Origin: a virus
Lineage: Duplodnaviria; Caudoviricetes
Length of the DNA: 64,000 nucleotides
IMG/VR virus record: IMGVR_UViG_3300040801_003690
Coordinates: 1,038-65,037 of that record
Strand: one strand, 5' to 3'
Shown: one piece after another, positions 6,986 through 56,782 of the stretch
Position numbering within the stretch: position 1 is the first letter of the stretch
Layout of the letters: the number at the start of each line of letters is the position of its first letter
The notes under the pieces: generated by a model
What the model saw: the letters and a program-made list of their open reading frames with translations, nothing else
What the model was told of the DNA's origin: nothing
Databases searched by the model: none
Program-made: the position numbers and the translations under genes

Positions 6986-7047
6986 AGTAAATATCCTAGT
7001 TCATTTTTATATATTTATCTAAAAATATAAAGAACTAAGATATCTGG

Positions 7048-7524: not shown

Positions 7525-9747
7525 TTACATATCAATTGCTGGTAAGGAAACATCATCATTGAGAAGGGTAATGACAAACTGGCCTTTCTGAAAATCTACT
7601 TTGGCCGTACCGCCATCGTTCAGTTCACCGAAGAGAATTTCACGGCTTAGCGGCTTTTTAATCTCATTTTGAAACAGTCGATTAAGCGGCCTTGCCCCCA
7701 TCTGGTCATCGTAGCCGCTGACCATGAGTTCTTCCCTAGCCGCAGGGGTAATCATGATATTGACATTTTTGTTCTTTAGCATCTGATTGGTTTCGTCTAC
7801 AATAGCAGATACTATGAGGTCCATTTCAACCATGGTCAATTTATTGAACTCAATCGTAGCATCTAAGCGATTACGAAATTCGGGTGTGAAAAATTGTTTA
7901 ATGGCTTTAGAAACTTCTCCTGCTCGTTCTTGAGATCCAAACCCGATACTAAGTTTTTCTGCTTCTGATGCCCCTAAGTTGGAAGTCATCAATAATACGA
8001 CATTGCTAAAATTGACTACTTTACCTTTGTTAGAAGTAAGATGCCCGTCGTCCATGATCTGCAAGAGAACTTGTAACACGCTGGGGTGGGCTTTTTCAAC
8101 TTCATCTAAAAGCAAAACTGCACTTGGATTTTCTTCTATTCTAGCAATCAACTGTCCTTGGCCCATCTGCCCCTCATCATGTCCAACGTAGCCGGGAGGA
8201 GCGCCTAACAACTTAGACACAGAATGTTGTTCGGAATATTCTGACATATCAAACCTAACTAACTCCACTGACATAAGTTCAGCGAGCTTTTTAGCCATCC
8301 AAGTTTTACCCGTACCGGTGGGACCAACCATTAGCGCGGAAATAATTGGCTTGTTAATGTCTCGTAGGCCAGATTTAGAAATCATAACGGCATCTGTTAC
8401 GACGTCGATTGCTTCGTCTTGTCCAAACACACGGTCTTTTAGACGAATATTGAGATTCTTGATCATGGTGTTCTCTTTCAAATCCACCATATCAATGGAA
8501 ATTTTAGCTAACTTTGCTAATCTATCCTGAATATCATCAATAGTGACTGTTTTGTCGTTTCTAAGCTTTACCTTCGCACCAGCGGCATCCATGATATCAA
8601 TCGCTTTGTCTGGGAGAAATTTATTGTGCATATATCGAACGCTCAAATCTACCGACATATCTAATGTTCCGTCAGCATACTCAACGCCATGGTACTCTTC
8701 GTAATATTTACGAAGTCCTTCGAGAATTTTCTTGGTATCTTCGGGTGAAGGAGGAAGAATATCTAATTTCTGAAAACGTCGCTGAAGTGCCTTGTCTTTT
8801 TCAAAATGCTGATGGTATTCATCATAAGTAGTAGCACCTATGCATGAAATATTGCCATTAGCTAACATGGGCTTAAGTAAATTTGCAGCATCCATGGTAC
8901 CATTAGACGTAGCGCCTGCTCCCATGAGCATATGCACTTCATCTATAAAAAGAATAACATCGTCTCGGTTTTCAATTTGTTTAAGAATAGCTTTCAGCCT
9001 TTCTTCAAAATCTCCCCGGAACCTAGTACCAGCTAGAAGAGAACCTAAATCCAGAGAATAAACCTGTTTGTTTTTTAGAAGATCTGGCACTTCGTTTTCG
9101 ACAATCATTCGGGCAAATCCCTCGGCAATGGCTGTTTTCCCAACACCTGCCTCTCCAACCATAATTACGTTATTTTTCTTCCTTAACGCTAAAATGTTTA
9201 TGAGGTCAATAATCTCGTTTTCGCGCCCAATAACCGGGTCAATTTTTCCTTCTTTGCAGGTTTCGTTAAGATTCTTGCAAAAGGTTTCAAGAGCATCACC
9301 ACCTTCGGTTCCGGTCTGACGCTGAGATTCCATTTCTTTGTTGATTTTATCCAGCGTAACGCCGTGCTTTTCAAAAATCTGCTTGGAAACGGAATTCTCC
9401 TCATGCAAAATACTCACCAAAATCATGACAGGACTGGGTTCTGGAGAATCAACAAAATGGGCCTTCACAACTGCGCGTCCCGATACCCTACGTACAGCGG
9501 TGGTGTCTTTGGGGTATCCACCAGCAGGATCATCCTGCGCGAGTTCAGGACGAGAAAGATATTGCTCTAATTTGTTTTTAATGTGATTGGGACTCCCCCC
9601 TACTGTCTCAATCATAGAAACTACTTCGGGATTTTCCATCAGCACTAACGCCAAATGTTCGGTCGTAACATATTTGTGATTTCTATGAGAGGCCAAAGTT
9701 GCGGCTTTTTTGATGATTTTTTCAAATTCCGGCATATCTGCTGACAT
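7525..9747 (-). CDS. clpA: ATP-dependent Clp protease ATP-binding subunit ClpA
   Basis: Clp N-domain (YVTTEHL), two Walker A motifs (GEAGVGKT, GPTGTGKT), RGDFEERL, GAPPGYVG pore loop, IGF ClpP-docking loop, no ClpB middle domain. Confidence 0.93.
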   Translation of the reverse strand: MSADMPEFEKIIKKAATLASHRNHKYVTTEHLALVLMENPEVVSMIETVGGSPNHIKNKLEQYLSRPELAQDDPAGGYPKDTTAVRRVSGRAVVKAHFVDSPEPSPVMILVSILHEENSVSKQIFEKHGVTLDKINKEMESQRQTGTEGGDALETFCKNLNETCKEGKIDPVIGRENEIIDLINILALRKKNNVIMVGEAGVGKTAIAEGFARMIVENEVPDLLKNKQVYSLDLGSLLAGTRFRGDFEERLKAILKQIENRDDVILFIDEVHMLMGAGATSNGTMDAANLLKPMLANGNISCIGATTYDEYHQHFEKDKALQRRFQKLDILPPSPEDTKKILEGLRKYYEEYHGVEYADGTLDMSVDLSVRYMHNKFLPDKAIDIMDAAGAKVKLRNDKTVTIDDIQDRLAKLAKISIDMVDLKENTMIKNLNIRLKDRVFGQDEAIDVVTDAVMISKSGLRDINKPIISALMVGPTGTGKTWMAKKLAELMSVELVRFDMSEYSEQHSVSKLLGAPPGYVGHDEGQMGQGQLIARIEENPSAVLLLDEVEKAHPSVLQVLLQIMDDGHLTSNKGKVVNFSNVVLLMTSNLGASEAEKLSIGFGSQERAGEVSKAIKQFFTPEFRNRLDATIEFNKLTMVEMDLIVSAIVDETNQMLKNKNVNIMITPAAREELMVSGYDDQMGARPLNRLFQNEIKKPLSREILFGELNDGGTAKVDFQKGQFVITLLNDDVSLPAIDM

Positions 9748-9760
9748 TAAATTTTCTCCA

Positions 9761-10546
9761 TTATACAGTGTATTGTTTGGGCGAATATATGTTGGTTATA
9801 ATAACTTGTTTTTGCTCTTCTGTCAAGTCTGCAGGAACATAAATTTTACAAACAACATACAAATCCCCCACAGCATTATTTATTTCTGGGTTAGGCATAC
9901 CCTTTCCTTTTATCCTGAGCATTTGTTCTGGTTGCGTTCCCTGAGGAACCTTTAAGGTGTATTTATCTCCATTCAAATGCCTGATGTCTGCGGTCGTCCC
10001 AAGCATAGCATCGAATACGTTGATGTGTAACTCAATATACAAATCATCATTTTGTCTATGAAAACGCTCATGTGGAACAACAGATACCTTAAATAACGTA
10101 TTGTTGGCTTGAAACAAAGTACCATGCCGCGTACCTGCGGGTATATTAACAAGCTTGCCGTTGACGTTTTTTTGTACGCCCCCATAGACATCTTCCAATG
10201 TACATTGAACGCTGAACACATTCTGTTGCTGTCGCCTCGGTCTACGAAAACCACCACCAAAAATGTCACCAAATATAGACCCCAAGTCATCGGTGTTGAA
10301 CGGTCCAAATCCAGAATCTTGATGCTCGAACACAGATCCAAAGCGACGTTGTGTGTCGTATTCCTGTCTTTTTTGGCTATTAGACAAGACGGCATTGGCT
10401 TCGTTTATTTCTTGAAATTTTTCTTTGGCTTGTGGATGATCAGAACGATCTGGATGCCACTCCTTCGCTAATGTTCTATAAGCCTTTTTTATTTCGGCTG
10501 TTGTAGCGTCTTCTGAGACGCCCAAAATCTCATAATAATTTTTCAC
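9761..10546 (-). CDS. dnaJ: DnaJ-class co-chaperone (CbpA-like, no zinc finger)
   Basis: NYYEILGV, HPD motif, G/F region, DnaJ_C (RIKGKGMP...GDLYV); GTG start. Confidence 0.92.
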   Translation of the reverse strand: MKNYYEILGVSEDATTAEIKKAYRTLAKEWHPDRSDHPQAKEKFQEINEANAVLSNSQKRQEYDTQRRFGSVFEHQDSGFGPFNTDDLGSIFGDIFGGGFRRPRRQQQNVFSVQCTLEDVYGGVQKNVNGKLVNIPAGTRHGTLFQANNTLFKVSVVPHERFHRQNDDLYIELHINVFDAMLGTTADIRHLNGDKYTLKVPQGTQPEQMLRIKGKGMPNPEINNAVGDLYVVCKIYVPADLTEEQKQVIITNIYSPKQYTV

Positions 10547-10564
10547 AATAAGGTATTTTACGTA

Positions 10565-21771: not shown

Positions 21772-21831
21772 AGGGTTATCCTGCTAATTTAGAAAAAGCT
21801 TAACTATTTGTATATATTTATCATGGAAACT

Positions 21832-21882: not shown

Positions 21883-22482
21883 TTAAGATTTACGTTCCGA
21901 CCATATCTCGTCTACTAAACCAAATTCAAGGGCTTTTGTCGCACCCATAAAATTGTCTCTGTCCATTGCAGCTTCAAGTTCTTGGTAGGTTTTGCCTGCA
22001 CTATTGTGCTTTATGTAAATCTGGATCAATCTTTCTTTTAATGCATTCATTTCTTCGACATGAATGAGGGCGTCGCTTACTTGACCATGAAATCCACCCA
22101 AGGGTTGATGGATCATCACACGGGCTTCTGGCAGAATAAAGCGTTTGCCAGCCGCACCGGCCTGTGCCAAAACCGAACCCATACTACACGCTTGTCCAAC
22201 TACATATGTAGCAACGTCGGGCTTGATAAACTGCATTGTATCATATATTGCCATTCCTGATGTAATTACGCCGCCGGGACTATTGATATATACATGAACA
22301 TCTGCGTCGGGGTTTTCTGATTCCAAAAACAGTAATTGGGCAACAACCAAATTAGCCATGTTGTCTTCAATTTCGCCATTTAAAAAAATAATGCGCTCTT
22401 TGAGTAGCCGAGAAAAAATATCATATGATCTTTCTCCACGACTAGACTGTTCTACAACAACGGGTACTAAAGTATTATTCAT
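21883..22482 (-). CDS. clpP: ATP-dependent Clp protease proteolytic subunit ClpP
   Basis: [49 protein letters not shown]; start moved to ATG 22482 behind GGAGA SD. Confidence 0.97.
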
Positions 22483-22507
22483 TAAATTCTCCATATTTGG
22501 GATAAAT

Positions 22508-22543: not shown

Positions 22544-22930
22544 ATGCGATTATTTGAATTTTACGGAAAAAATACCTACACGACAGCCGACGACTTTTTC
22601 AAAACACAAGAAGAGGTGGAGAAAACATTTAATTATGAGGCTTATCGCGCACAGGAAGACCAAGCAAGATATTATGTTCAAAACAATATGATTGGCAACG
22701 TTCCTGTGTTTGAAAAGCCGCACAAAAACCCTGACGAAGAAAACTGGTCAAACCAGCCGAACGAAAACAATGTAGAATCCGCAGGATATAGGGGACTACA
22801 AAATGTGTTACGCCGATCAGGACACGAATATGACAAATCTGTGGATCATGAGGATCCACATGCGAACCCAATCTTATCCAAGGAAGAACAGGACTTGATC
22901 AAGGATGCTCAGCGAAGGCTAACTAGATAA
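22544..22930 (+). CDS. Late-expressed hypothetical protein, possible internal head protein (128 aa)
   Basis: GATAAATA at 22501-22508 on + strand, AAGG SD, 'MRLFEF' N-terminus, terminator right after stop. Confidence 0.7.
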
Positions 22931-22955
22931 AAAAGGGGCATAAAGCCCCTTTTTT
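22929..22955. terminator. Bidirectional intrinsic terminator
   Basis: AAAAAAGGGGC-ATAAA-GCCCCTTTTTT between convergent genes. Confidence 0.9.
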
Positions 22956-24819
22956 ATTTTTCCTCAAATTCAGCATCAACAACATCGTCATCTACAGAAA
23001 CATCTCCCTCTATGTTCATATTTTTAAACAAAGGGGCAGCATGTTCTGACAAAGCGGCCATGTATTTGTTTATTGCCTCTTTGTCGTCGCCTTGCAGGGC
23101 CTTTTCTAGATCCTCAATGGATGTCTGAATGGCTTCTCTTTCTTCATCAGAAACAGCGTCCTTGGCCTCGTTAAGTTGCGTCTTGATGCTGTGCACTAAT
23201 CCATCTCCGGTGTTCCTAAGTTTAACCAACTCTTCGAATTTTTTATCTTCTTCGCTATACATTTCTGCCTCACGAATAATTTTCTCGATCTCTTCGTCGC
23301 TTAACCCAGACCCAGCTTTGATTTCAATTGCTTGTTCTTGGTTGGTTTGCTTGTCAGTTGCGCTGACTTTAATGATTCCGTTAGCATCGATATCAAATTT
23401 AACTTCTATCTGTGGAATTCCACGAGGGGCGGGTTGTATGCCTGTTAAATCAAACCTCCCCAGTGATTTGTTTTCCAAAGCCTGTGGCCTTTCCCCCTGC
23501 AAAACATGAACCGTAACTGCAGGTTGGTTATCTTCTGCCGTTGAAAATATTTGGGTGGCAGATGTCGGGATTGTAGTATTTTTTTCGATAAGCTTAGTCA
23601 TGACCCCGCCCAAAGTTTCTATCCCCAAAGACAGTGGGGTGACATCGAGCAGCAGAACATCCTTGACGCTCCCACTCAAAACACCGGCCTGTATACTAGC
23701 ACCTATTGCAACCGCCTCGTCCGGATTCACTCCTTTGTGTGGAGTTTTACCAAAAATTTTCTCCACTGTCTCTTGAACGAGAGGCATGCGAGTTTGTCCT
23801 CCAACTAACAACACATCGTCAATTTCGGGGGCGGTCAATCCAGCGTCCTGTAGTGCAATTTTACATGGCTCAACCGATCTATCCACGAACTTTTTAACTA
23901 GCGATTCTAGTTTTTTTCTAGTTATACGGACCAACAGATGTTTTGGACCAGTATCTGTTGCAGTTATATAAGGTAGATTAACCTCGGTTTGCATTGTCGA
24001 TGACAGTTCAATTTTGGCAATTTGTGCCGCTTCCTTGAGTCTTTGCAAGGCCAACGAATCCTTCGACAAATCGATGGCTTCTGCGTTTTTAAATTCAGAT
24101 ACCAAATAATCTACAATCGCATTATCAAAGTCTTCGCCTCCAAGAAAAGTATCACCATTGGTAGAAAGAACCTCGTATTGATAATCGCCATCTATTTCAC
24201 TAATTTCTATTATAGAAACATCGAATGTCCCGCCGCCCATATCATAAACTGCAACCTTACGTTCACCTTTTTGCTTATCCATGCCATATGCTAACGCCGC
24301 AGCAGTTGGCTCATTGATAATACGCAATACCTCCAAACCAGCAATTTTACCAGCATCTTTGGTTGCCTGTCGTTGCGAATCATTAAAATAAGCGGGTACA
24401 GTAATTACTGCTTTAGTAACTTCTTCGCCCAAATAATCTTCCGCCGTTTTTTTCATTTTTTTAAGTATAATGGCCGACACTTCTTCTGGAGAAAGTTTTT
24501 TATCATCCACCTTAACCCAGACATCACCATTCTGCGATTCAATCAACTCATAAGGAAACAATTCTTTCTCTTTTTGTGATTCGGCATCAGTAAACTTACG
24601 ACCAATAAGTCTTTTTATCGCGAACAGCGTATTTTTGGGGTTCGTTACTGCTTGCCTTGCTGCAGATTTCCCAACCAACGTATCATTTTCAGTAAATGCA
24701 ACTATAGAAGGAGTCGTCCGATCTCCTTCAGCATTTTCAATAACTTTGGGTTTATCACCATCGATGATGGCTATGCAAGAATTTGTAGTACCTAAATCTA
24801 TACCAATACATTTGCTCAT
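22954..24819 (-). CDS. dnaK: Chaperone DnaK (Hsp70)
   Basis: [39 protein letters not shown]-terminal DAEFEE. Confidence 0.98.
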
Positions 24820-24898
24820 AATTTTACTCCTTTATTCAAAGCAAGTTTTAAATGATTAACCCGCACCATGCAGCATTAACCGTGAGTTATTTATCTAC
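24820..24898 (-). promoter_or_regulatory. dnaK leader: late motif + 5' hairpin + ROSE-like SD-sequestering hairpin
   Basis: GATAAATA; GGUUAAU-G-CUGCA/UGCGG-GUUAAUC; ACUUGCUUU pairing with AAAGGAGU. Confidence 0.72.
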
Positions 24899-24902
24899 GA
24901 TA

Positions 24903-25688
24903 TTAAAATTTATCGCTTAAATAATTTAAGACCGTTTCAGAAAAATCCAAATCATATTCAATCGATTCTGGATCAAATCGGGTTATATTATTTATCGCCC
25001 ATTTCCAATATGACAACGGAACGTCTTCGATTTTTTCGCCCTTGTGTTTACCAAAAGGCATAATTTCAATTTTAACAGGGGCTTTCAGCCATTCCTTGAT
25101 CTGAGAATAATAATCTTTATTCGTGTCTATTATGCCTCTGGATTCCATTTCATCCAATAACACTTCTAATACCAATCCAGTCAAGTAAGAATCATACCCA
25201 GCTCGGTGTGGATTTAAATTAGCATCATATTCTAATTCTAACCGATAAAATAAATATTGTAAATTTAATTGTGTAAAACTGGGATCGTTGACAAATAATT
25301 TTTTAGCTACACGTAAAGTGCAAAACCATCTATCCTCTGTCCCCCGATACACATCGTCGGATACATAATTTTTCAACATACGCAAGTCAAACGGAGCGTT
25401 GTGTGAACACATAATATCACGCTTGCTTTGGGTAAACGGATACCATAGCTCCGCCACAAACATGGGATAATCCTTAATTTTTTTCTTAGTTAAATGATTA
25501 CATGCTGATGTTTCTGGATCTATTTTATCCAATGAACAATCATGCAATTCTTCTGATAAAATTACCCACTGGCCGTTTTCATAACCAACCGATGCTTGTT
25601 CTATAATTTCAGCGGATTCGGGGTCAAGGGCAGTTGTTTCAAAATCCAAACATATTAAGGAATTCAAAAATTCTTCTCGTTTTGTCAT
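24903..25688 (-). CDS. DEDDh 3'-5' exonuclease (ExoX/DnaQ-like) with C-terminal MPFGKHKG domain
   Basis: DFETT, HNAPFD, HRA.YD motifs. Confidence 0.9.
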   Translation of the reverse strand: MTKREEFLNSLICLDFETTALDPESAEIIEQASVGYENGQWVILSEELHDCSLDKIDPETSACNHLTKKKIKDYPMFVAELWYPFTQSKRDIMCSHNAPFDLRMLKNYVSDDVYRGTEDRWFCTLRVAKKLFVNDPSFTQLNLQYLFYRLELEYDANLNPHRAGYDSYLTGLVLEVLLDEMESRGIIDTNKDYYSQIKEWLKAPVKIEIMPFGKHKGEKIEDVPLSYWKWAINNITRFDPESIEYDLDFSETVLNYLSDKF

Positions 25689-25696
25689 AGTATAAT

Positions 25697-25725
25697 ATTA
25701 TACTACCAAAATCGATTTAAGTCAA
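25697..25725 (-). promoter_or_regulatory. Sigma70-type promoter, near-leaderless
   Basis: TTGACT-17 bp-TATAAT, 8 nt before ATG. Confidence 0.8.
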
Positions 25726-25733
25726 GTAAAGTA

Positions 25734-26510
25734 TTACTTTTGTTGAAGTTTTGCTAGCAACGCACCTTGTTCGTCACTGCTCATAGCTAAAAATGTTCCT
25801 CGACTGACCGGTCTCTTGCCCCCATTATACTTGTCACAAACGGCAATATATTTGTCGCATTTTTGAACATCTGATTCCCCGTCGCTGGGCGGCTCCTCAG
25901 TAAGAACTTCGTCATCGTCTACATTCGCGCTCAACCTAGCGTGTATTCTACGTATACCTTCATCTGAAATTTTATACAAAGATTCTCGACTATAGTTAGA
26001 CGAAATGATACCAGATTCTTGCCAATCCATTATATCTGCAATCATCAACGATATATCTTCTTCTCCAGAAACATCCAGATCATAATAATCATCTTCAGAA
26101 TTATTGTTAAGAAAATTTGGTACAATCAAATCGTCGGCTGTTTCAAAATCATCGCTCGGAAATTCCAGTTCATCTTCTTCCCGCAATAATTCAATATCTG
26201 AAACATGCAATAACAAAGAGGCTGCTCCATTCCGAACCACACTAACAAATTCTCCGGTTATGCTCTCTACTATTCCAGATCCTCCACCAGCAAACGAAGA
26301 TATTAAAACAGAATCACCAGCTTTGTATTTGTTATCATATATTTTAGTATTGGTGGTTGTCGTGCTAAAATTTTCCGGGAAACATTCGTCGCACGTATAA
26401 AGCTTACACCCACATGGCTTTTTCGTAGCTGGCTTGGCCTCATCAAGTTCTTTTATTGTTTTGGCGGCTTCGGGCGAAGCTACCAAATCCATCCATTTGC
26501 GAATATTCAT
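25734..26510 (-). CDS. Late acidic hypothetical protein, possible head protein (258 aa)
   Basis: Late motif at 26540-26547; AGGA SD; CxC...CxxC cluster. Confidence 0.65.
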   Translation of the reverse strand: MNIRKWMDLVASPEAAKTIKELDEAKPATKKPCGCKLYTCDECFPENFSTTTTNTKIYDNKYKAGDSVLISSFAGGGSGIVESITGEFVSVVRNGAASLLLHVSDIELLREEDELEFPSDDFETADDLIVPNFLNNNSEDDYYDLDVSGEEDISLMIADIMDWQESGIISSNYSRESLYKISDEGIRRIHARLSANVDDDEVLTEEPPSDGESDVQKCDKYIAVCDKYNGGKRPVSRGTFLAMSSDEQGALLAKLQQK

Positions 26511-26567
26511 ACGATAGTATCCTATAAACTAGTTTACTATATTTATCAATTACTATTAAAATAAGAA

Positions 26568-26903
26568 TCAATATGGTATAAGATCACCGGCCTTTATATC
26601 AAACATATCTGGATTATCGTAAGAGCCGTCTTCAAGTTTATACATGATGTTGGCTACATTATCAGCCAATTCGGCACGATTCATGGCTTCGTACGATGAT
26701 TCTAACGGAATGACCATTAAATTTACCTTTTGCCACTCACCTGTGGTTTTTTCCAACAGTTCCTTGAACATTTCAGCAGAAGATTCAGCGGAAGTGCTTT
26801 CCAACACTATGCAAGTGTAATCCCCATTTTTATCTACCCAGCCAATAATAGCTGGAAACGCTTTAGTCATCATATGGCTCATCCTCATCGTCTTCTTCTT
26901 CAT
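26568..26903 (-). CDS. Hypothetical protein
   Basis: ORF in operon order; start uncertain. Confidence 0.55.
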   Translation of the reverse strand: MKKKTMRMSHMMTKAFPAIIGWVDKNGDYTCIVLESTSAESSAEMFKELLEKTTGEWQKVNLMVIPLESSYEAMNRAELADNVANIMYKLEDGSYDNPDMFDIKAGDLIPY

Positions 26904-27117
26904 CAGAATGTATTACCGACAAGTCCATGTCTTCGAAAAAGTCTTCCAACCAATCGCAATCTTCATCTTCATCTTGTACAAAATCCGCATCAGTTGGTGT
27001 TTCAAACACAATCTTCCTGTGGTGGTCACACCACGGATGATCAATCTTTGTAGAGGCACCACACATGTGGCCATCGTTGTCTATCCACTGACACGTGGTA
27101 GGAATGAAATCTAACAT
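26863..27117 (-). CDS. Small Cys/His protein resembling the GcrA C-terminal domain, acidic tail
   Basis: TCQWI...CG......PWCDHHRKIVF; GGGAGAG SD before ATG 27117. Confidence 0.55.
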   Translation of the reverse strand: MLDFIPTTCQWIDNDGHMCGASTKIDHPWCDHHRKIVFETPTDADFVQDEDEDCDWLEDFFEDMDLSVIHSDEEEDDEDEPYDD

Positions 27118-27166
27118 ATATTGTTCTCTCCCAGTTATAGTTATCAAAAAATGTCACGAAATATGA

Positions 27167-27484
27167 CTATACGGCTTCCTCAAGAGTTACTTTTAATGGA
27201 AATCCATTTGCAGCTGCTGCGTTGATTACTTCTTCTGCCTTGAATTCCGCAATTTCGAAGGTATAACTACCAGCTACGCCCTTTCCGGAAGTATGAATAT
27301 ATAATGTTATTTCCAATGCATCATCGACTGTCTTTTCGAAAATTTCTAGCAAAACAGACACAACGAAATCAAAAGTAGTAACATCATCGTTGTGCAAGAT
27401 AACATTGTATATCTTTGGCACATCAATTCCGATTTCTTCGAAAATGTCTGTCGAAACGTCGGGGGTGGATATTGCACTGTTCAT
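27167..27484 (-). CDS. clpS: Clp protease adaptor ClpS
   Basis: YNVILHNDDVTTFDFVV, IHTSGKGVAG.Y..EIAE.K, FPL; start moved to ATG 27484. Confidence 0.95.
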   Translation of the reverse strand: MNSAISTPDVSTDIFEEIGIDVPKIYNVILHNDDVTTFDFVVSVLLEIFEKTVDDALEITLYIHTSGKGVAGSYTFEIAEFKAEEVINAAAANGFPLKVTLEEAV

Positions 27485-27488
27485 AATA

Positions 27489-27551
27489 AGAATACCGTGG
27501 GTTGTTTTAATCGTTATCGCTATTAAAACATAACCCACGGTATTCTGTCAA
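27489..27551 (-). promoter_or_regulatory. Inverted repeat overlapping putative clpS promoter
   Basis: AGAATACCGTGGGTT / AACCCACGGTATTCT perfect 15-bp arms plus 8-bp inner stem; TTGACA-18 bp-TTTAAT. Confidence 0.65.
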
Positions 27552-27554
27552 GTG

Positions 27555-27983
27555 TTATTTGACTTCAATTTGCCTTGGTTTTTCTTCTTCGGGGATAATC
27601 TTTGCAATTTCAACCAAAAGTAAGCCATCTTTCATCTCTGCGGACTGTACTTCTAGTTTATTTGCCAGTTTTAATCTCCTAGAGAAATTTCGTGAGGAAA
27701 TGCCCCTATGAAGATATGTGCTGTCTTCGTTCGTTTCTGTCGTTTTCGTGCCACTGACAATCAACGAAGCTCCCTCTTGAACTACACTGATGTTATCGGG
27801 CGACCATCCCGCTAAAGCAAATTCCACTATGTACGTGGAATCATCTATGACCCGCACGTTATGCGGAGGATAACCGTCTGGAATGCTCGTGTTCATCGCT
27901 TCATGAAGAAGCTTGTCCATACCTACCCATGCTGGGCCTATACTATTTAAGAGACGCGAAACCGTCATGCTGTTTTCATTCAT
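27555..27983 (-). CDS. Small heat shock protein Hsp20 (IbpA-like)
   Basis: YPPHNV, EFALAGW, YLHRGISSRNFSR, DGLL, PEEEKPRQIEV; start moved to ATG 27983. Confidence 0.95.
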   Translation of the reverse strand: MNENSMTVSRLLNSIGPAWVGMDKLLHEAMNTSIPDGYPPHNVRVIDDSTYIVEFALAGWSPDNISVVQEGASLIVSGTKTTETNEDSTYLHRGISSRNFSRRLKLANKLEVQSAEMKDGLLLVEIAKIIPEEEKPRQIEVK

Positions 27984-28064
27984 GATATTTACTCCTTTAA
28001 TATAAAAGCAAGTTATATAAACAAACCCCGCCCTATGCGGCAATTTGTATCTTTATTTATCTAC
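27984..28064 (-). promoter_or_regulatory. hsp20 leader: late motif + 5' hairpin + ROSE-like hairpin
   Basis: GATAAATA; ACAAAUU-G-CCGC/GCGG-GGUUUGU; ACUUGCUUU pairing with AAAGGAGU. Confidence 0.78.
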
Positions 28065-28078
28065 TTAATAAAAAAATA

Positions 28079-28333
28079 TTAAATAGATAAATTGGTATTG
28101 GCTTTTTTCTTAAGCCAACGTTTACGAGCCAACTGAGATTCTCGCTTACGCTTTGCTGTTGGCTTCTCGTAATGACTGGATTCCTTGACTAACCTAAGCC
28201 TCCCATCGTCTTGAACTTTTTTATTAAAAATTCGTAAGGCTTTGTTTAAATTATTGTCCCTAACTTCCACTGATATTCCCTTAACCCTGATTGGTGGAGT
28301 GTGTTTTTGTGTGTCAGATTTTCTAAAGTTCAT
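28079..28333 (-). CDS. rpsU: Ribosomal protein bS21
   Basis: VEVRDNNLNKALRIF.KKV...HYEKPTAKRKR. Confidence 0.88.
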   Translation of the reverse strand: MNFRKSDTQKHTPPIRVKGISVEVRDNNLNKALRIFNKKVQDDGRLRLVKESSHYEKPTAKRKRESQLARKRWLKKKANTNLSI

Positions 28334-28340
28334 ATGTTAT

Positions 28341-29561
28341 TCATTTCTCGCCGTTAATTTGTTTTTTCTGAACCACTTCCAACATGCCAGCGTCATCAAT
28401 ATAAATAGACTCTATGCCGTCTTTAGACATTTGTGGGAGTCGGTACTGTACTCCTAGCAAAGTTTCCTCTAACTTTGCTCTAAGCCCTCTGGCACCAATT
28501 TTTTGTTTAGCACATTCGGAAGCTATTTTATTTATATATTTTTCACTAAAGTTAATTATAACATCATCTAACTCAAAAAGCAACTTATATTGATCGATTA
28601 AGTTATTTTTTGGTTCTTTTAAAATCCTAATTAAATCTTTTTCAGAAAGTTCGCTCAGTGATGTAAATACAGGGAATCTTCCTACAAACTCCGGAATCAA
28701 CCCATAATCAATTAGATGTTGAGGTTTGGTTAGACTCAGTATGTCAGAAACCTCAGACGACACCAGCGAAGCAAAACCAATTTGACTGGCTCCTCCAATG
28801 TCGCGACTGATAATCTTGTCTAAGCCAACAAAGGCCCCTCCACAAATAAACAAAACGTTAGATGTGTCAAAATCCACTATTTCGGAGGATCCTCGTGACC
28901 CACTGCTTGAACGCAGGGGAACCTTAAGCACTGTTCCTTCTATCATTTTCAATAAACTTTGCTGTACGCCCTCTCCCGAGACATCACGGGAAGCGGAATT
29001 AGTAACAGATCGTGAAGCTTTTTTGTCTATTTCATCAATATAAATTATCCCTGTTTGTGCTTTTTCTATATCTCCTTCAGCACTATATATAAGCCGTTCA
29101 ATTATACTCTCGACGTCTTCACCTACATAACCAGCCTCAGTCAGACTGGTAGCATCAGCGATTGCCATGGGCATATCGAGATATTGGGCAATAATTTTTA
29201 CCATATATGTTTTGCCGACTCCGCTGGGTCCAACCATCAACACATTTGATTTATCTATTGTTCGATCTCCGACCCCCAACAACTTAATGGTTTTTATGTG
29301 GTTATACACGGCAACCGACAACACTTCCTTTGAATGGGACTGTGATATGACGTATTGGTCTAGGTATTCTTTTATTTTATTTGGGTATACTTTTGCTACT
29401 TCGGCCCTCGACTGTTCGGCGAATTCTTCTTCTACGATCTTAGAACATACCTCAATGCATTCGTTGCAGATATATGCAGGCTCATGTGTGGGGCTTTTGG
29501 GGCTAGAAATTAGTCTAGTAACATCTTTTTGTGATTTATGACAAAACGAACATATGATCAT
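28341..29561 (-). CDS. clpX: ATP-dependent Clp protease ATP-binding subunit ClpX
   Basis: CSFC...CNEC zinc finger, GPSGVGKT, EAGYVGEDVE, RDVSGEGVQQ, IGF loop, GARGLR. Confidence 0.96.
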   Translation of the reverse strand: MIICSFCHKSQKDVTRLISSPKSPTHEPAYICNECIEVCSKIVEEEFAEQSRAEVAKVYPNKIKEYLDQYVISQSHSKEVLSVAVYNHIKTIKLLGVGDRTIDKSNVLMVGPSGVGKTYMVKIIAQYLDMPMAIADATSLTEAGYVGEDVESIIERLIYSAEGDIEKAQTGIIYIDEIDKKASRSVTNSASRDVSGEGVQQSLLKMIEGTVLKVPLRSSSGSRGSSEIVDFDTSNVLFICGGAFVGLDKIISRDIGGASQIGFASLVSSEVSDILSLTKPQHLIDYGLIPEFVGRFPVFTSLSELSEKDLIRILKEPKNNLIDQYKLLFELDDVIINFSEKYINKIASECAKQKIGARGLRAKLEETLLGVQYRLPQMSKDGIESIYIDDAGMLEVVQKKQINGEK

Positions 29562-30997: not shown

Positions 30998-31900
30998 TCA
31001 TACAGCCATTGGTACTTTGGGTAATTGTGGATGGGGATTATAATCAATTATTTCAATATCATCCCATTCCAAATCTAAATAAGTGTCTTCTGTTACTTTC
31101 TTCTTAAACCTCAACGTTGGCAAAGCTCTAGGCTCGCGCTTAATCTGTAATTTAGCGTTTTCCAACTGGTTAGTATATAAGTGAACATCTCCTCCCATAT
31201 AAACTAATTCCCCAGACTTAACCCCCACTATTTCAGCAAACAGACGATTCAAGAACGCATATGATGCAATATTAAACGGCAAGCCTAAATAAACATCATT
31301 TGATCTCATATAAAACATGCTGTTCAACTTACCATCCATAATCTGATATTGATGCATTACGTGACAGGGTGGGAGAGCAGATTCACCAAGTTGCTGTGGA
31401 TTCCACGCTGTTATCAAGTGTCGCCTTGAGTCCGGATCATCACGTAACCCTCTTATTACTTGCTCTACCTGATCCACCCCACGCGAAGGATAATAACTGG
31501 TTAGTTGTCTGAAAGGGGATTCAAAATTCATTTTGAAAATTTCATCTTCTGTGTACCCTCCAAAATGCCTCCATTGCCAACCGTATCCTTTGCCCATGTC
31601 CCCCTCGGGTAAATAATCTAATCCACGATTATCTAAAAATTCTCGGGTAGTATTTCCGGTCCAAATTTTAATATTTTTTTCTTCTAATTTCTTAGTGTCG
31701 GTTTCGCCTCTAAGAAAAAACATAGTTTCTTCAAAAGCAATTCGAAAGGGTACTGGTCGTGTCGTGAGTAGAGGGAACGTATCCGAAAGATCAAAACGCA
31801 AGGTTCGGCCCCAGACAGCCTTGGTACCAACACCAGTCCTATCTTTCTTCTCATACCCATTTTCTAATATGTCGTTAAGTAAATCCGTGTAATTTTTCAT
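30998..31900 (-). CDS. thyA: Thymidylate synthase
   Basis: DRTGVGT, YGWQWR, ALPPCH, RSNDVYLGLPFNIASY, DVHLY; start at ATG 31900. Confidence 0.97.
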   Translation of the reverse strand: MKNYTDLLNDILENGYEKKDRTGVGTKAVWGRTLRFDLSDTFPLLTTRPVPFRIAFEETMFFLRGETDTKKLEEKNIKIWTGNTTREFLDNRGLDYLPEGDMGKGYGWQWRHFGGYTEDEIFKMNFESPFRQLTSYYPSRGVDQVEQVIRGLRDDPDSRRHLITAWNPQQLGESALPPCHVMHQYQIMDGKLNSMFYMRSNDVYLGLPFNIASYAFLNRLFAEIVGVKSGELVYMGGDVHLYTNQLENAKLQIKREPRALPTLRFKKKVTEDTYLDLEWDDIEIIDYNPHPQLPKVPMAV

Positions 31901-31906
31901 TGCTAT

Positions 31907-31935
31907 ATTATACCAATTTTTATAAAAAAAATCAA
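31907..31935 (-). promoter_or_regulatory. Sigma70-type promoter, leaderless thyA
   Basis: TTGATT-17 bp-TATAAT with extended TG, 6 nt before ATG. Confidence 0.75.
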
Positions 31936-31968
31936 CAAACTTCCGGCATATAAAAAATAAATACATTC

Positions 31969-33655: not shown

Positions 33656-33703
33656 TTAACAACAACCTTGACTATCCATATGTGTTATTTATCTACATAT
33701 CTT

Positions 33704-35190: not shown

Positions 35191-37434
35191 CTAAAAATTT
35201 ACTTCGCATGCTCCCCCAACACAAGATGCCGAGGCCAACGTATCCACCTCGATATAATTGGGACTCAGGTTGGTTTCGTTCCAATCAATCTTACGTAAGT
35301 GTCGCATAATATGAACCCATTTGTGATAGTTGTGAATATCCTTCAGGCAATGCGTCATTTGCCCAACATCGCCATCAAAATAATTGTCGGCAAATTTTAT
35401 TGATCGTCTTACCCAATCTTGTTGTTGGAAATTAACTTCTCCGTAATCATCGGGATCTGGTGGAAATAAAACCTTATCACAGGCTTCCCACAAGTTGTTG
35501 TTAAATGCATACATACCATCAACAATTAGACCCGATGCAAACAGAGCCGCATCTCCGTAAAACTCTAATAGCTGTTCTTTAGAAAACACCTCGGTAAATG
35601 GTGCTTGAGCATAGGCTTTGTCTCCCATTATACCCAAAAGACTAATGCCAGCAAAATATTTTCTGTTTTCATAGATATAATCCGCCACTTCATCCCAATC
35701 ACTGACTTGGATCGTATTAGATACGTTGTGGCGAGTGTCTGGGTGTACGCACAATTCTCTATTAGTACCATATTCCACCCAATTTTGCTGCGTCAATTTA
35801 ACTAATTCGAGCTGTTTAACTCCGACTAAATCACGCTTAAATAACGAATCATCTTTAGCTACCACTGGAATTGAAAATATCCAATCAGTTCCATTGGCGT
35901 TCCAAACACTTTCTTCAACCGCGCAGGGGTTGTGTTCAGCAAATATCTTGGCAATTTCATTATCTTTGTTCATCTGCATGTTCCTGAAATACATCGGAGC
36001 ATGTTCTCCGTGAATTCCAGACGCGGTTGATAACAACACCGATGCATTGCCACTGGGCTTAACACAAGTAGTACGAGCCGCCTGATTAATTCTAATCATG
36101 TCAGCAACACGCTTGTTGGTGGCCTTTACAATTTCGGCACCTTTGCGTTGAACTTCTGGATCAAAAAGAACATCAGGATTATTTGTCCATCCAGTAACAC
36201 TTACTCCAATTAAAGCTTCTCTTTCAAAAATCTTTTTGGATGCTTTGCTAACATATTTAAAATTGGTATACCCTGCCTGTAAAGTCCCCATAATAGATGC
36301 AGCTTCACATGCCGCATAGAATTTTTCCGGGGTAGTACAGAGGCTTCCGTTAATTTCAACTAAGTTGCAACCTTCAGCACCAGACTCCCCCTCTTCTGTT
36401 TGGGGGTACATGCCGATTTCCACACAAGGATTGTAAACTATGTCTTCTGATTCTGTAAACACAAAACCCGGCTCACCATATTCTCTTACACTTTCCATAA
36501 TATTGTCGAACTGTTCTTTGGTAACACGATCTCTAATGAGGACAGCAGAGTTATTGCTACGCGCTCTTTGGGGGTTAGTTGCTAACCAATTGCCGGTCTT
36601 GGCTGTAAGCATTTCCTGATCATAGTGGCTAAAGAGACATATAGTGGCTGAACGCCTAACACCACCGCTCAAAACGGCGTTAGACATGTGCATGACGATA
36701 TCGTAAGCAATGATACTTGAGAATTTGGCATTTTGCTTTCGTCCAACATGGGCATTCAAAAGCTCTTCAATCTTTCCGATTGAATTTCTTAGACCATCTG
36801 GACCGGGAGCTTTGAAACCTCCCGAAATCTTTGAACCTTTGGGACGAATCTTACTATAATCGAATGCTACGTGGTGTCCCTGATATTCCGGGAATGGCAC
36901 TTCTCCGGTGGCATAGCTGCTTATCAATACCCCAATTGCATCTGACCACCCCTCGATGCTATCCGGTATAACAAACGTCTTTGCTTTTTTCTCACGCGCC
37001 CTCAGTGGCGGCAATTTATTCACATGTTTTCTCTGGACCGAAAACCCTACGCCGCACCCACACAACAACCAGTACATGCATTCCTGAAAAAATTCCACTC
37101 GATCAACGTATGCCGAAACACAATTAAACATTTTAGCTTCATGTTTGAGCATAGGTGCCCCGCCAAATTGCAACGCTCTTTGCGATCCCAGTATTTCTTT
37201 ATTCAAATATGCCTTTTTCGCAATTTCAAACTCTTTATTTAATTCATCATTACCGTCGAGCACTTTTTTGTATTTCGTACGATGCATATTCATCACACGT
37301 TCAACACTGTCCTCCCAATTTTCTACTCTTTCTTCTTCCTCGATGTATCTTGCGTAATCTGTATAAAATTTTATTTCTGATGCTAGTTGGCTCCCATCGT
37401 AAAGGTGGGTAGTGGCGGGGTTTTTCTTGGACAC
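35191..37434 (-). CDS. nrdJ: Class II (adenosylcobalamin-dependent, monomeric RTPR-type) ribonucleotide reductase
   Basis: FNC, GCGVGFS, GGVRRSA, RARSNNS, NPCVEI, CNL.E, TCVKPSG, C-terminal CVGGAC; GTG start with AAGGAG. Confidence 0.85.
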   Translation of the reverse strand: MSKKNPATTHLYDGSQLASEIKFYTDYARYIEEEERVENWEDSVERVMNMHRTKYKKVLDGNDELNKEFEIAKKAYLNKEILGSQRALQFGGAPMLKHEAKMFNCVSAYVDRVEFFQECMYWLLCGCGVGFSVQRKHVNKLPPLRAREKKAKTFVIPDSIEGWSDAIGVLISSYATGEVPFPEYQGHHVAFDYSKIRPKGSKISGGFKAPGPDGLRNSIGKIEELLNAHVGRKQNAKFSSIIAYDIVMHMSNAVLSGGVRRSATICLFSHYDQEMLTAKTGNWLATNPQRARSNNSAVLIRDRVTKEQFDNIMESVREYGEPGFVFTESEDIVYNPCVEIGMYPQTEEGESGAEGCNLVEINGSLCTTPEKFYAACEAASIMGTLQAGYTNFKYVSKASKKIFEREALIGVSVTGWTNNPDVLFDPEVQRKGAEIVKATNKRVADMIRINQAARTTCVKPSGNASVLLSTASGIHGEHAPMYFRNMQMNKDNEIAKIFAEHNPCAVEESVWNANGTDWIFSIPVVAKDDSLFKRDLVGVKQLELVKLTQQNWVEYGTNRELCVHPDTRHNVSNTIQVSDWDEVADYIYENRKYFAGISLLGIMGDKAYAQAPFTEVFSKEQLLEFYGDAALFASGLIVDGMYAFNNNLWEACDKVLFPPDPDDYGEVNFQQQDWVRRSIKFADNYFDGDVGQMTHCLKDIHNYHKWVHIMRHLRKIDWNETNLSPNYIEVDTLASASCVGGACEVNF

Positions 37435-50093: not shown

Positions 50094-51494
50094 TCAGAGT
50101 TTCTTGAGCATTTCTCTAAGGTTGGATCCTCGCTCAACAATGTTTATTTCATTTTCGCGGGGTTCGGGGGGTTTCAGAACACTCTTCTTTTTCAGATTTT
50201 CAATGACTTTTTCTGTGTCGATATGATCTCCGGTTTCCTCGTTATCCCAATCTGTTATTCGCATGGTTTTGATATTATATTTCAAATCAAGTTTAGCCCC
50301 AGTACCAGAACTAGAGCGAGTTTTCAACAACTGAACTTGGTATCTTCCGCCTTCTTTCATTGTCATTGTAGTGAAAATAGCGATAACATTGTCTGCCGTG
50401 TTTATTTTTGAAATACCACCAGAAATATGACTATGGTCGTAATCTATTTCATCATGACTTTGTCTATTAAGCTGTGAAGCCGTTCCCAAAACAACGTCGC
50501 AGTCGGTAGCAAGCTTGCGTAGTTCTTCCGAAACGTATTTGTCTTTTACAAACAAATCACTAGGCGTTATTCTCCTGTCGTATGGGATCATAAGATCTAA
50601 ATAGTCTACCATTACTGCGTCAACCTTTAGACCAGTATTAATTTCGTATTCTTTGACATATGCCCTTATGTCTGTGGATGTGGTCGCGGCTGGAGGCATG
50701 TATTTGACCTGCATAGATCCCCCGTGCTCTTTAGAAAACTTATTGATACGCATTGCAGTATCATCGGGGTCTTTCACCAGTTCTTGCGTGCCATACCCGC
50801 TCAGCATAGCGAACAAACGCAAGTTTATAAGGGCCTCACTCAATTCCAACGTAATATATAGGACATTTAGCCCCTGTGCGACCAAATTTAAAGACCAGTT
50901 CTGTAAAAAAAGACTTTTACCAATGCCCGATTGTCCAGCAAATATATTGAGTGTTCCACGTTCGGTACCACCATATAATTTCCTGTCAATATCAGACCAT
51001 CCAGTAGATATCATGTCCCCTTTTTCCAGCATTCGTCTTATTTGGTGCTCTGGATGATCAAACACGTCCGTTCCCAAGTCTTTTACCAGACCAATCTGAA
51101 CCGCATTTTTGATATTGGCTTCAACCTCACCGTACCTCTTTTCCTGCAATAGGTCGGCTGACTTTAAGATTTCAATTTCTAACGCACGATGACGGCAAAA
51201 CTGTTCATATTCACCAAGAAACCAATCTCCATGTGTTGCACAGTCTTTTGCATCCAACTGTTCGTATGCCGTCCCACATTTAGTATTAATAATTTCAATT
51301 GACGGTGCCATCGAATGATCGTTGGCATAAGACATGATAAATTTTATTGCTCTTTGTGCGTGGGGTGATTCGAAATACTCTGACTTTGTAATACTCATGC
51401 ATCTGGTTAAAAGAGTACGATCTGTAATCAAGAACCGTATGAACAAATCTTCTAAGTCTGGGGTATAATCTTGTATTTCTTTACTTTTAGTCAT
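50094..51494 (-). CDS. Replicative helicase (T4 gp41 / DnaB-like)
   Basis: GQSGIGKS, YITLEL, VDYLDLM, TASQLNR, KTRSS. Confidence 0.94.
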   Translation of the reverse strand: MTKSKEIQDYTPDLEDLFIRFLITDRTLLTRCMSITKSEYFESPHAQRAIKFIMSYANDHSMAPSIEIINTKCGTAYEQLDAKDCATHGDWFLGEYEQFCRHRALEIEILKSADLLQEKRYGEVEANIKNAVQIGLVKDLGTDVFDHPEHQIRRMLEKGDMISTGWSDIDRKLYGGTERGTLNIFAGQSGIGKSLFLQNWSLNLVAQGLNVLYITLELSEALINLRLFAMLSGYGTQELVKDPDDTAMRINKFSKEHGGSMQVKYMPPAATTSTDIRAYVKEYEINTGLKVDAVMVDYLDLMIPYDRRITPSDLFVKDKYVSEELRKLATDCDVVLGTASQLNRQSHDEIDYDHSHISGGISKINTADNVIAIFTTMTMKEGGRYQVQLLKTRSSSGTGAKLDLKYNIKTMRITDWDNEETGDHIDTEKVIENLKKKSVLKPPEPRENEINIVERGSNLREMLKKL

Positions 51495-56132: not shown

Positions 56133-56782
56133 ATCATTTCCGTAAATTTTTTATTTTCAGCTATAGCAGCACTTATCTTCTCGTTAAATTCATCAATAGT
56201 GCCTTGTAATTTATGAAATACAAATGCATTCTCTATTTGTTCATAATCATTTTCAATTAAACGTAGTCTTATATAAAACCCACAATCCTTTCTATACAAT
56301 GGATTTAATACAAGAACCAAGTCCCCCCTGCCATCATAGTGTGTTTTAATATAATCATCCGCAGATTCCAATATCTCTGGTGCTAGACCTTTCGTCCCAT
56401 CACTTTTATAATTGTCATATTGGATTACACGTCGCAACGTATAATAATATTTTTCTCCAACTAGTAACGGAACACTTGTGTCGATTTTTTGAACATTCCC
56501 TAACCTACTGTCTTTGTGTACAAACACAGTCTCAGACGGTTCATCTAATTGGAGTAACAACTTAAATGCATCCCAATATACATCAAACGATCCATAATAC
56601 CTATCTATAAGATATTGGTAACTTTTCTTAAGTTCCATCGTTATGACAACCTGTTGATCGCCCACCGAATGGTCAACCATTATGTTTTTGCACATTTTAG
56701 ACAAATAAGACCCGGTGTTTGTTGTCCGGTTGTACCTAATGTAATCGTGTGCGTCAACCACGAGTCTTGTCTTCTTCATCAA
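56129..56782 (-). CDS. Hypothetical protein (217 aa)
   Basis: ATGA-coupled to both neighbours. Confidence 0.6.
   Translation of the reverse strand: MMKKTRLVVDAHDYIRYNRTTNTGSYLSKMCKNIMVDHSVGDQQVVITMELKKSYQYLIDRYYGSFDVYWDAFKLLLQLDEPSETVFVHKDSRLGNVQKIDTSVPLLVGEKYYYTLRRVIQYDNYKSDGTKGLAPEILESADDYIKTHYDGRGDLVLVLNPLYRKDCGFYIRLRLIENDYEQIENAFVFHKLQGTIDEFNEKISAAIAENKKFTEMI

Follow-up and report, generated by a model that had tools for sequence, protein, structure and literature searches.

Two-hairpin leaders resembling short ROSE-like RNA thermometers precede the hsp20 and dnaK genes of a phage

Does a phage that carries chaperone genes also carry its own means of controlling them? The question is raised by a 64,000-nucleotide stretch of DNA (hereafter the window; positions 1,038 to 65,037 of IMG/VR virus record IMGVR_UViG_3300040801_003690, assigned to the Caudoviricetes), whose minus strand encodes the chaperone DnaK (22954..24819; 621 amino acids; Pfam HSP70, E 2.4e-255) and the small heat-shock protein Hsp20 (27555..27983; 142 amino acids from the ATG at 27983; Pfam HSP20, E 3.7e-16), each behind a short leader that a preliminary description, made from the letters of the DNA, had likened to the ROSE family of RNA thermometers. 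We find that the two-hairpin structure of these leaders is real and that it is widespread among phages; judged on sequence, the leader is a phage relative, scoring below threshold, of the short ROSE-like thermometers, carried on hsp20 and duplicated onto dnaK. The open full-text literature (subscription journals lie outside this coverage) yielded no description of a ROSE-type element in a phage or before dnaK, in agreement with the preliminary description, whose author knew of no ROSE-controlled dnaK, and none of phage control of chaperone genes.

Read on the minus strand, both leaders consist, in order, of the promoter-like motif GTAGATAAATAA, a 28-nucleotide first hairpin with a bulged G in its 5' arm, an A/U-rich spacer, a second hairpin and the AUG. 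Before dnaK the motif occupies 24887..24898, hairpin 1 24854..24881, hairpin 2 24826..24846 and the ATG 24817-24819; before hsp20 the corresponding positions are 28053..28064, 28021..28048, 27991..28013 and 27981-27983. The motifs are placed by sequence; the first hairpins by RNAfold, which gives both a lower stem, a one-nucleotide 5' bulge and an upper stem, and by alignment to hairpin 1 of a covariance model, R1 (described below), and of the Rfam model ROSE_3; and the second hairpins by sequence, by folding in isolation and by the R1 and ROSE_3 alignments. Hairpin 1 of dnaK (GGUUAAU-G-CUGCA / UGCGG-GUUAAUC) has a 7-bp lower stem, a bulged G at 24874, a 5-bp upper stem and a 3-nucleotide loop, and that of hsp20 (ACAAAUU-G-CCGC / GCGG-GGUUUGU) a 7-bp lower stem, a bulged G at 28041, a 4-bp upper stem and a 5-nucleotide loop. 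In hairpin 2 of both leaders an anti-Shine-Dalgarno (anti-SD) segment, ACUUGCUUU, is followed by a loop of 4 or 6 nucleotides and by AAAGGAGU, which holds the Shine-Dalgarno (SD) sequence, and a second G is bulged: ACUU-G-CUUU stands opposite AAAG-GAGU in each, with the loop gaau and a bulged G at 24842 in dnaK (SD 24827-24833) and a bulged G at 28009 in hsp20 (SD 27992-27998).

What the preliminary description had said about the form of the leaders thus stands: their common architecture is found verbatim on the minus strand, the stems of hairpin 1 differ in sequence yet pair and keep their bulged G in RNAfold, each second hairpin, folded in isolation, has the bulged-G pairing of anti-SD with SD as its minimum-energy form, and the covariation it had read from the stems of two copies is present in both helices across phages, as set out below. 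Both hairpins of the leader hold one and the same module, a pyrimidine, a bulged G and a C opposite G-G, and this twin module is conserved throughout the phage family and recurs in the consensus of ROSE_3.

The preliminary description had also suggested building a covariance model from related phage leaders. Such a model, R1, made from a gap-free seed of 3 hsp20 leaders from other viral contigs and a hand-written two-hairpin structure, was applied without filters to the entire 64 kb and picked out just the two leaders of the window, that of hsp20 at 30.9 bits (E 1.9e-6) and that of dnaK at 22.8 bits (E 3.5e-4, both for the 64-kb window); the next-best match reached 11.1 bits (E 0.68). Exact copies of AACTTGCTTT likewise occur in the window only in the two leaders. 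Their likeness to each other is beyond chance.

How far does the leader extend beyond this phage? The Hsp20 gene is widespread in marine T4-like cyanophages and in pelagiphages, and relatives of the window's Hsp20 are found in 501 phage records, mostly of cyanophages. A scan of viral contigs for AACTTGCTTT followed, after a gap of 2-12 nucleotides, by AAAGGAG returned at least 117 stretches; among the matches listed, 59 of the 72 downstream open reading frames (ORFs) of at least 40 amino acids encode Hsp20 homologues and none encodes DnaK. A like scan of prokaryote genomes returned at least 120 loci with 30 downstream ORFs of that length, 2 of them Hsp20 among the matches listed, and the upstream sequence of both of these hsp20 loci (L218 and L230) is phage-like. 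A set found by its pattern is biased by that pattern, and we therefore gathered viral hsp20 loci, 80 in all, solely on the similarity of their proteins, 75 of which were usable (L255, L257, L271, L273 and L315 were dropped for a short upstream region or the lack of a start codon) and which gave 72 distinct leaders once identical ones were merged. At E <= 0.01, R1 recovered 57 of these 80. When the 72 leaders were aligned by plain MAFFT with the two from the window, every one of the 74 kept the G and the C of U(U/C)GCU.

The leader could be seen by eye before hsp20 in four cultured phages, HTVC008M (Pelagibacter), S-SM2 (Synechococcus), the cyanophage P-TIM40 and Atu_ph07 (Agrobacterium), and R1 matches three of these four. 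In S-SM2 (L241, record positions 120577-121608) hsp20 and its ROSE-like leader lie directly downstream of regA, which encodes the T4-type translational repressor; at another of the viral loci a tRNA gene (L293:1085-1154, 60.2 bits) lies just downstream of hsp20.

Viral relatives of the window's dnaK number five (61-63% identity), and four of them have the canonical leader and the fifth a variant. In three of the five, hsp20 follows dnaK directly with a leader copy of its own, hairpin 1 of which falls inside the last dnaK codons (L324:2394-2443, L326:2409-2460 and L327:2409-2460), an arrangement suggesting that in these three the hsp20 leader also works inside an operon without a promoter of its own. 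In five larger phage records R1 gave one match each in four; the match in the 437-kb record (20 bits, E 0.015) precedes a non-chaperone ORF, is without the bulged-G core and was not counted. Of the two-gene regulon that the preliminary description had ascribed to this phage as its own, the shared leader on dnaK and hsp20 is upheld and its being peculiar to this phage is not, the leader being a widespread one.

If the leader is an RNA structure, its stems should vary in step, and they do. We fitted the 69 R1 matches (64 distinct rows) to the model as alignment A7, in which 91.8% of cells pair (73.6% in shuffles), covariation scores 0.476 (0.141 in shuffles) and both sides have changed in 13 of 17 pairs; none of 500 shuffles reaches the pairing, the covariation or the both-side measure, and when the partners are slid by 1-3 columns as a control only 51-58% of cells pair. 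Helix 1 is the more variable, with both-side changes in 8 of its 9 pairs and 94.5% of cells paired. Helix 2 has a near-invariant core, as would be expected of an SD and its partner, flanked by outer pairs that covary. Across the family the pair before the bulge of helix 2 is U-G in 49 cases and C-G in 14, and a C-G pair adjoins the bulge in 58 of the 59 cells scored for hairpin 1 and in 64 of 64 for hairpin 2. A model-independent, anchor-based count, in which the register was picked to maximise pairing, gives the bulged-G helix a mean length of 6.97 bp; when the tails are shuffled the mean is 4.50 bp, and the highest value in 200 shuffles is 5.01. Beneath the core of helix 2 the same count finds U-A in 33 cases, C-G in 11 and A-U in 10. 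RNAfold returns the exact stem-bulge-stem form of hairpin 1 in 50 of the 72 other leaders; RNAalifold on the MAFFT alignment of all 74 leaders, in which hairpin 1 is misaligned, predicts 0 pairs.

These results bear on the simplest alternative, that two A/T-rich leaders resemble each other by chance. Within the window it could appeal to the absence of any enrichment of AACTTGCTTT in searches tolerating one mismatch (10 copies, where 7.09 are expected) and to the weak z-scores of the leader folds; the independent R1 search and the covariation counts refute it, and the linkage to hsp20 and dnaK, the invariant G and C of the anti-SD and the bulged-G helix counts across phages exclude it as well, leaving a probability that we regard as negligible.

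Is the structure, then, a ROSE element? In scans of 106 nucleotides, ROSE_3 (RF02523) matches the dnaK leader at 25.7 bits (E 6.9e-4) and the hsp20 leader at 29.0 bits (E 9.9e-5), with all 69 model positions, both hairpins and both bulges aligned in register, and among 20 related loci it gives 34.9 bits for L259 and 27.1 bits for L250. Several results weigh on the other side. Both leaders remain below the ROSE_3 gathering cut-off of 43 bits; Rfam at its gathering thresholds finds zero families in the whole window; at E <= 10 the region 24700-28200 gives 8 chance-level matches, no ROSE family among them; a search of the phage record with RF02523 at E <= 10 gives 0 matches; and sub-threshold RF02523 matches turn up in 14 of 14 control genomes, so that such a match, taken alone, is weak evidence. 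The classical ROSE and ROSE_2 models have no match in any Rfam scan of the window or of the leaders, and sub-threshold matches to the Rfam family 'freshwater-2' (12.8 and 18.0 bits) were set aside, spanning little beyond the SD region. The ROSE signature claimed by the preliminary description therefore survives as to the two-hairpin architecture and the UUGCU anti-SD with its bulged G, and fails as to the ROSE_3 cut-off and any match to ROSE or ROSE_2.

From where would the leaders be transcribed? The 12-mer GTAGATAAATAA occurs in the window, with at most one mismatch, in 5 copies, all on the minus strand, where 0.60 are expected and none of 100 shuffles reaches 5. Its core, GATAAATA, has 18 copies on the minus strand and a single one on the plus strand (examples lie at 2543-2550, 7015-7022, 21818-21825 and 33689-33696); by reading, 16 of the 18 minus-strand copies stand just upstream of ORF starts, mostly 6-45 nucleotides from the start codon, before structural and non-structural genes alike. 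Since it is strand-biased and mostly upstream of ORF starts, GATAAATA is a real and general promoter-like signal of this phage. Among the genes behind it are clpP, a small gene just upstream of the replicative helicase, and virion genes, the non-structural set being without ribosomal-protein genes.

The T4-type late promoter is TATAAATA. It and the motif are alike in being near-identical A/T-rich octamers placed a few bases upstream of the presumed start; they differ in that the motif here reads (T/A)GATAAATA and has non-structural genes behind it too. Of the 'phage late promoter' named in the preliminary description, the promoter-like motif is retained and the assignment to a late class is not, the motif also preceding non-structural genes; no late sigma factor was identified among the genes of the window. 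The dnaK transcript would start about 5-6 nucleotides downstream of GTAGATAAATAA, at the base of hairpin 1. We found no sigma-70-like site directly upstream of either leader, and no scan for the sigma-32 consensus was made; the consensus sequences, compared by eye, led us to reject the idea that the anti-SD is a sigma-70 -35 box or a CIRCE or HAIR operator.

What might such a leader do? Thermometer function is plausible, and the reading that we favour, at slightly better than even chances, is that a two-hairpin ROSE-like 5' untranslated region (UTR) masks the SD and that warming opens hairpin 2, allowing Hsp20 and DnaK to be translated. The phage-type GATAAATA promoter would begin the transcript at the foot of hairpin 1, whose stable stem with its conserved bulged G would probably aid folding and protect the 5' end; in the cold, or without stress, the anti-SD ACUUGCUUU would pair with the SD AAAGGAGU around the bulged G in a weak helix that blocks the 30S subunit; warming would open that helix and release translation of both proteins; and the phage would in this way control both chaperone genes post-transcriptionally, without the host heat-shock sigma factor. 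Excerpts of PMC3669281 (Krajewski et al. 2013) describe short ROSE-like thermometers as having two hairpins of which hairpin II alone melts, G-C pairs flanking the core, sigma-32 promoters, and an induction of 3- to 8-fold from 25 to 42 °C.

Predicted energies give this proposal mixed support. The isolated second hairpins of dnaK and hsp20 have free energies of -5.7 and -6.9 kcal/mol at 10 °C, -4.1 and -5.2 at 20 °C, and -1.4 and -2.2 at 37 °C, a weakness that would suit a cool habitat, and the hsp20 SD is predicted to be masked in its mRNA context, the probability that it is unpaired being 0.01 at 20 °C and climbing to 0.23 at 50 °C; ranked by SD masking among 54 genes of the window, hsp20 comes 7th. 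The remaining predictions speak against a thermometer: the leaders have unremarkable folding energies (z -0.46 and -1.00), the dnaK SD comes out as 61-68% unpaired in its mRNA context at every temperature from 5 to 50 °C and ranks only 38th for masking, and across the 72 leaders SD accessibility at 15 °C is 0.28, against 0.29 in 5'-shuffled controls. To these is added the position of hairpin 1 within the 3' end of dnaK in L324, L326 and L327, which means that it is not solely a 5'-end element.

In the full mRNA context ViennaRNA favours other registers, pairing the dnaK anti-SD with GAGCAA and leaving the hsp20 pairing unbulged. The dnaK SD is predicted to be open because its anti-SD prefers this GAGCAA at the start codon: within 24815-24845 on the minus strand, the anti-SD UUGCUU is fully complementary to GAGCAA, formed by the G of the AUG and codons 2-3. 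Among the dnaK relatives L324 keeps this pairing with a G-U pair and L325-L327 do not, and the pairing is probably incidental, since it is lost in those three. ROSE hairpins are said, in excerpts of PMC11182007, to use non-canonical pairs around the bulged G. Energy models ignore such pairs.

If the models are taken at their word and no switch exists, the leader could be constitutive, hairpin 1 stabilising the mRNA or terminating upstream transcripts and the anti-SD fixing translation at a low level without any signal. Hairpin 1 does begin at the presumed 5' end, 5' stem-loops do stabilise mRNAs according to excerpts of PMC3669281, and the upper part of the hsp20 hairpin 1 with its T-rich tail scored as terminator-like. 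The terminator scan, however, gave 4 sites in the window where 2.2 are expected, a number not above chance, and left the dnaK hairpin unflagged, and hairpin 1 was set aside as a terminator. A leader without a signal also fits poorly with its distribution, since only dnaK and hsp20 match R1 in 64 kb that also hold clpP, clpX, clpS, clpA-like, dnaJ and bS21 genes and since four of the five larger phage records have a single match each, and with the invariance of the bulged G and adjoining C of the anti-SD in all 74 leaders. We regard a constitutive role as improbable.

A different signal is suggested by the protein that one of the leaders precedes. As excerpts of PMC10474464 relate, Escherichia coli IbpA represses translation both of ibpA and of ibpB through the 5' UTR, with R93, R97 and K98 mattering for this activity. 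The window's Hsp20 is IbpA-like (34% identity to Salmonella IbpA, RNFSRR aligning with RNFERK) and has R, R and R at the positions of IbpA R93, R97 and K98, keeping all three cationic positions; the R93 equivalent is kept in four other phage Hsp20s, and IbpB is without the R93, R97 and K98 residues. The phage Hsp20 might therefore bind the leader as an operator and repress translation of hsp20 and dnaK until unfolded proteins titrate it away, the leader then serving an aggregation sensor in place of a thermometer, though the two could coexist. That energy models predict no masking by RNA alone, that the conserved Y-G-C / G-G module in both hairpins imposes more sequence constraint than a melting helix needs, and that temperature would change little during a phage infection all lend this idea some weight. 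It loses weight in that this module also occurs in elements of Pseudomonas shown to thermoregulate in E. coli and, with the 30S subunit alone, in vitro (excerpts of PMC3669281), and in that the RNA determinant of IbpA binding is left undefined in the excerpts of PMC10474464; a protein operator is possible, and we put its likelihood well below an even chance. A wider version, in which the leader is the operator of a phage-autonomous, sigma-32-independent proteostasis loop built from a captured ROSE element, with Hsp20 bound to the twin bulged-G hairpins of its own mRNA and of the dnaK mRNA and silencing both until misfolded (virion) proteins titrate it, and with heat a secondary cue, seems to us unlikely.

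The genes around the two leaders belong to a proteostasis cluster. Nearly all genes of the window lie on the minus strand, and the source record, at 65,037 bases, has a CheckV completeness estimate of only 17%, from which the parent genome is taken to be that of a large phage. The cluster runs, in order, through ClpP (21883-22494), DnaK, an RNase T-type exonuclease, two genes of unknown function, ClpS, Hsp20, bS21 and ClpX; a ClpA-like ATPase with two AAA ATPase modules and a Clp_N domain, and a DnaJ-like protein with a J-domain and DnaJ_C (open frame 9761-10564, without an ATG at the N-terminus), are encoded elsewhere in the window, beyond the dnaK-hsp20 cluster. The ClpA-like, DnaJ-like, ClpP, ClpS, ClpX and bS21 genes together occupy 7525-10564, 21883-22494, 27167-27484 and 28079-29561 on the minus strand. 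For a phage fragment this proteostasis set is unusually full, and within it the leader is restricted to dnaK and hsp20. Thymidylate synthase (30998-31966), ribonucleotide reductase (35191-37293), a DnaB-like helicase (50094-51494) and a second DNA helicase (56779-58236) make up a phage nucleotide and replication module. A megablast search of 22900-28200 against cultured phages gave zero matches, and a related-locus search seeded with Hsp20 alone gave zero relatives.

Were a ROSE-type leader conserved on phage hsp20, and in large phages on dnaK as well, phages would have carried a complete post-transcriptional heat or stress switch together with the gene that it controls, one independent of the host heat-shock sigma factor. 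Cyanobacteria are not known for ROSE elements, and a ROSE-type switch would then operate in such hosts too. The short list of phage RNA thermometers would gain a large family, ROSE control would extend to a new kind of gene, dnaK, and the weak, A/U-rich sensing hairpins would offer natural examples tuned to cool waters.

Among known systems the leader stands closest to the ROSE_3 element of Pseudomonas ibpA, which, in the excerpts of PMC3669281, likewise has two hairpins only, a hairpin 1 with an AUGCC...GGGU core and a 5' bulged G, and a hairpin 2 in which U(U/C)GCU lies opposite the SD around a bulged G, with the AUG a few nucleotides downstream; an IbpA-type small heat-shock gene follows in both cases. 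Common descent of the leader and ROSE_3 would be the simplest reading, because the two share both the U(U/C)GCU hairpin and, in hairpin 1, the AUGCC...GGGU core. The differences are that the leader is phage-borne and stands behind the phage-type GATAAATA motif instead of a sigma-32 promoter, that its hairpin 1 has a longer upper stem, that its hairpin 2 is weaker, and that a second copy precedes dnaK; in hairpin 2, moreover, the phage has a C-G pair below the core and three U-A pairs above it, with no upper G-C clamp, a further point to be set against thermosensing. The self-repression of gamma-proteobacterial IbpA offers a second parallel, an IbpA-type small heat-shock protein with the R93/R97/K98 cluster encoded behind a ROSE-type leader, from which the phage departs in having the dnaK mRNA as a putative second target.

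Classical ROSE and ROSE_2 elements, of alpha-proteobacterial hsp genes and enterobacterial ibpA, share with the leader an anti-SD of the form U(U/C)GCU, a bulged G and a 3' hairpin that masks the SD (excerpts of PMC3669281 and PMC11182007) and differ in being longer, with three to four hairpins. The phage RNA thermometers named in excerpts of PMC11182007 (Robo-Therm) are lambda cIII, SPbeta blyA and a sigma-70 candidate, which, like the leader, are cis-acting structured 5' regions of phages proposed to sense temperature. Their structures and genes are unrelated to those described here, and none is of ROSE type; the leader differs further in having chaperone genes downstream and in being kept across many phages.

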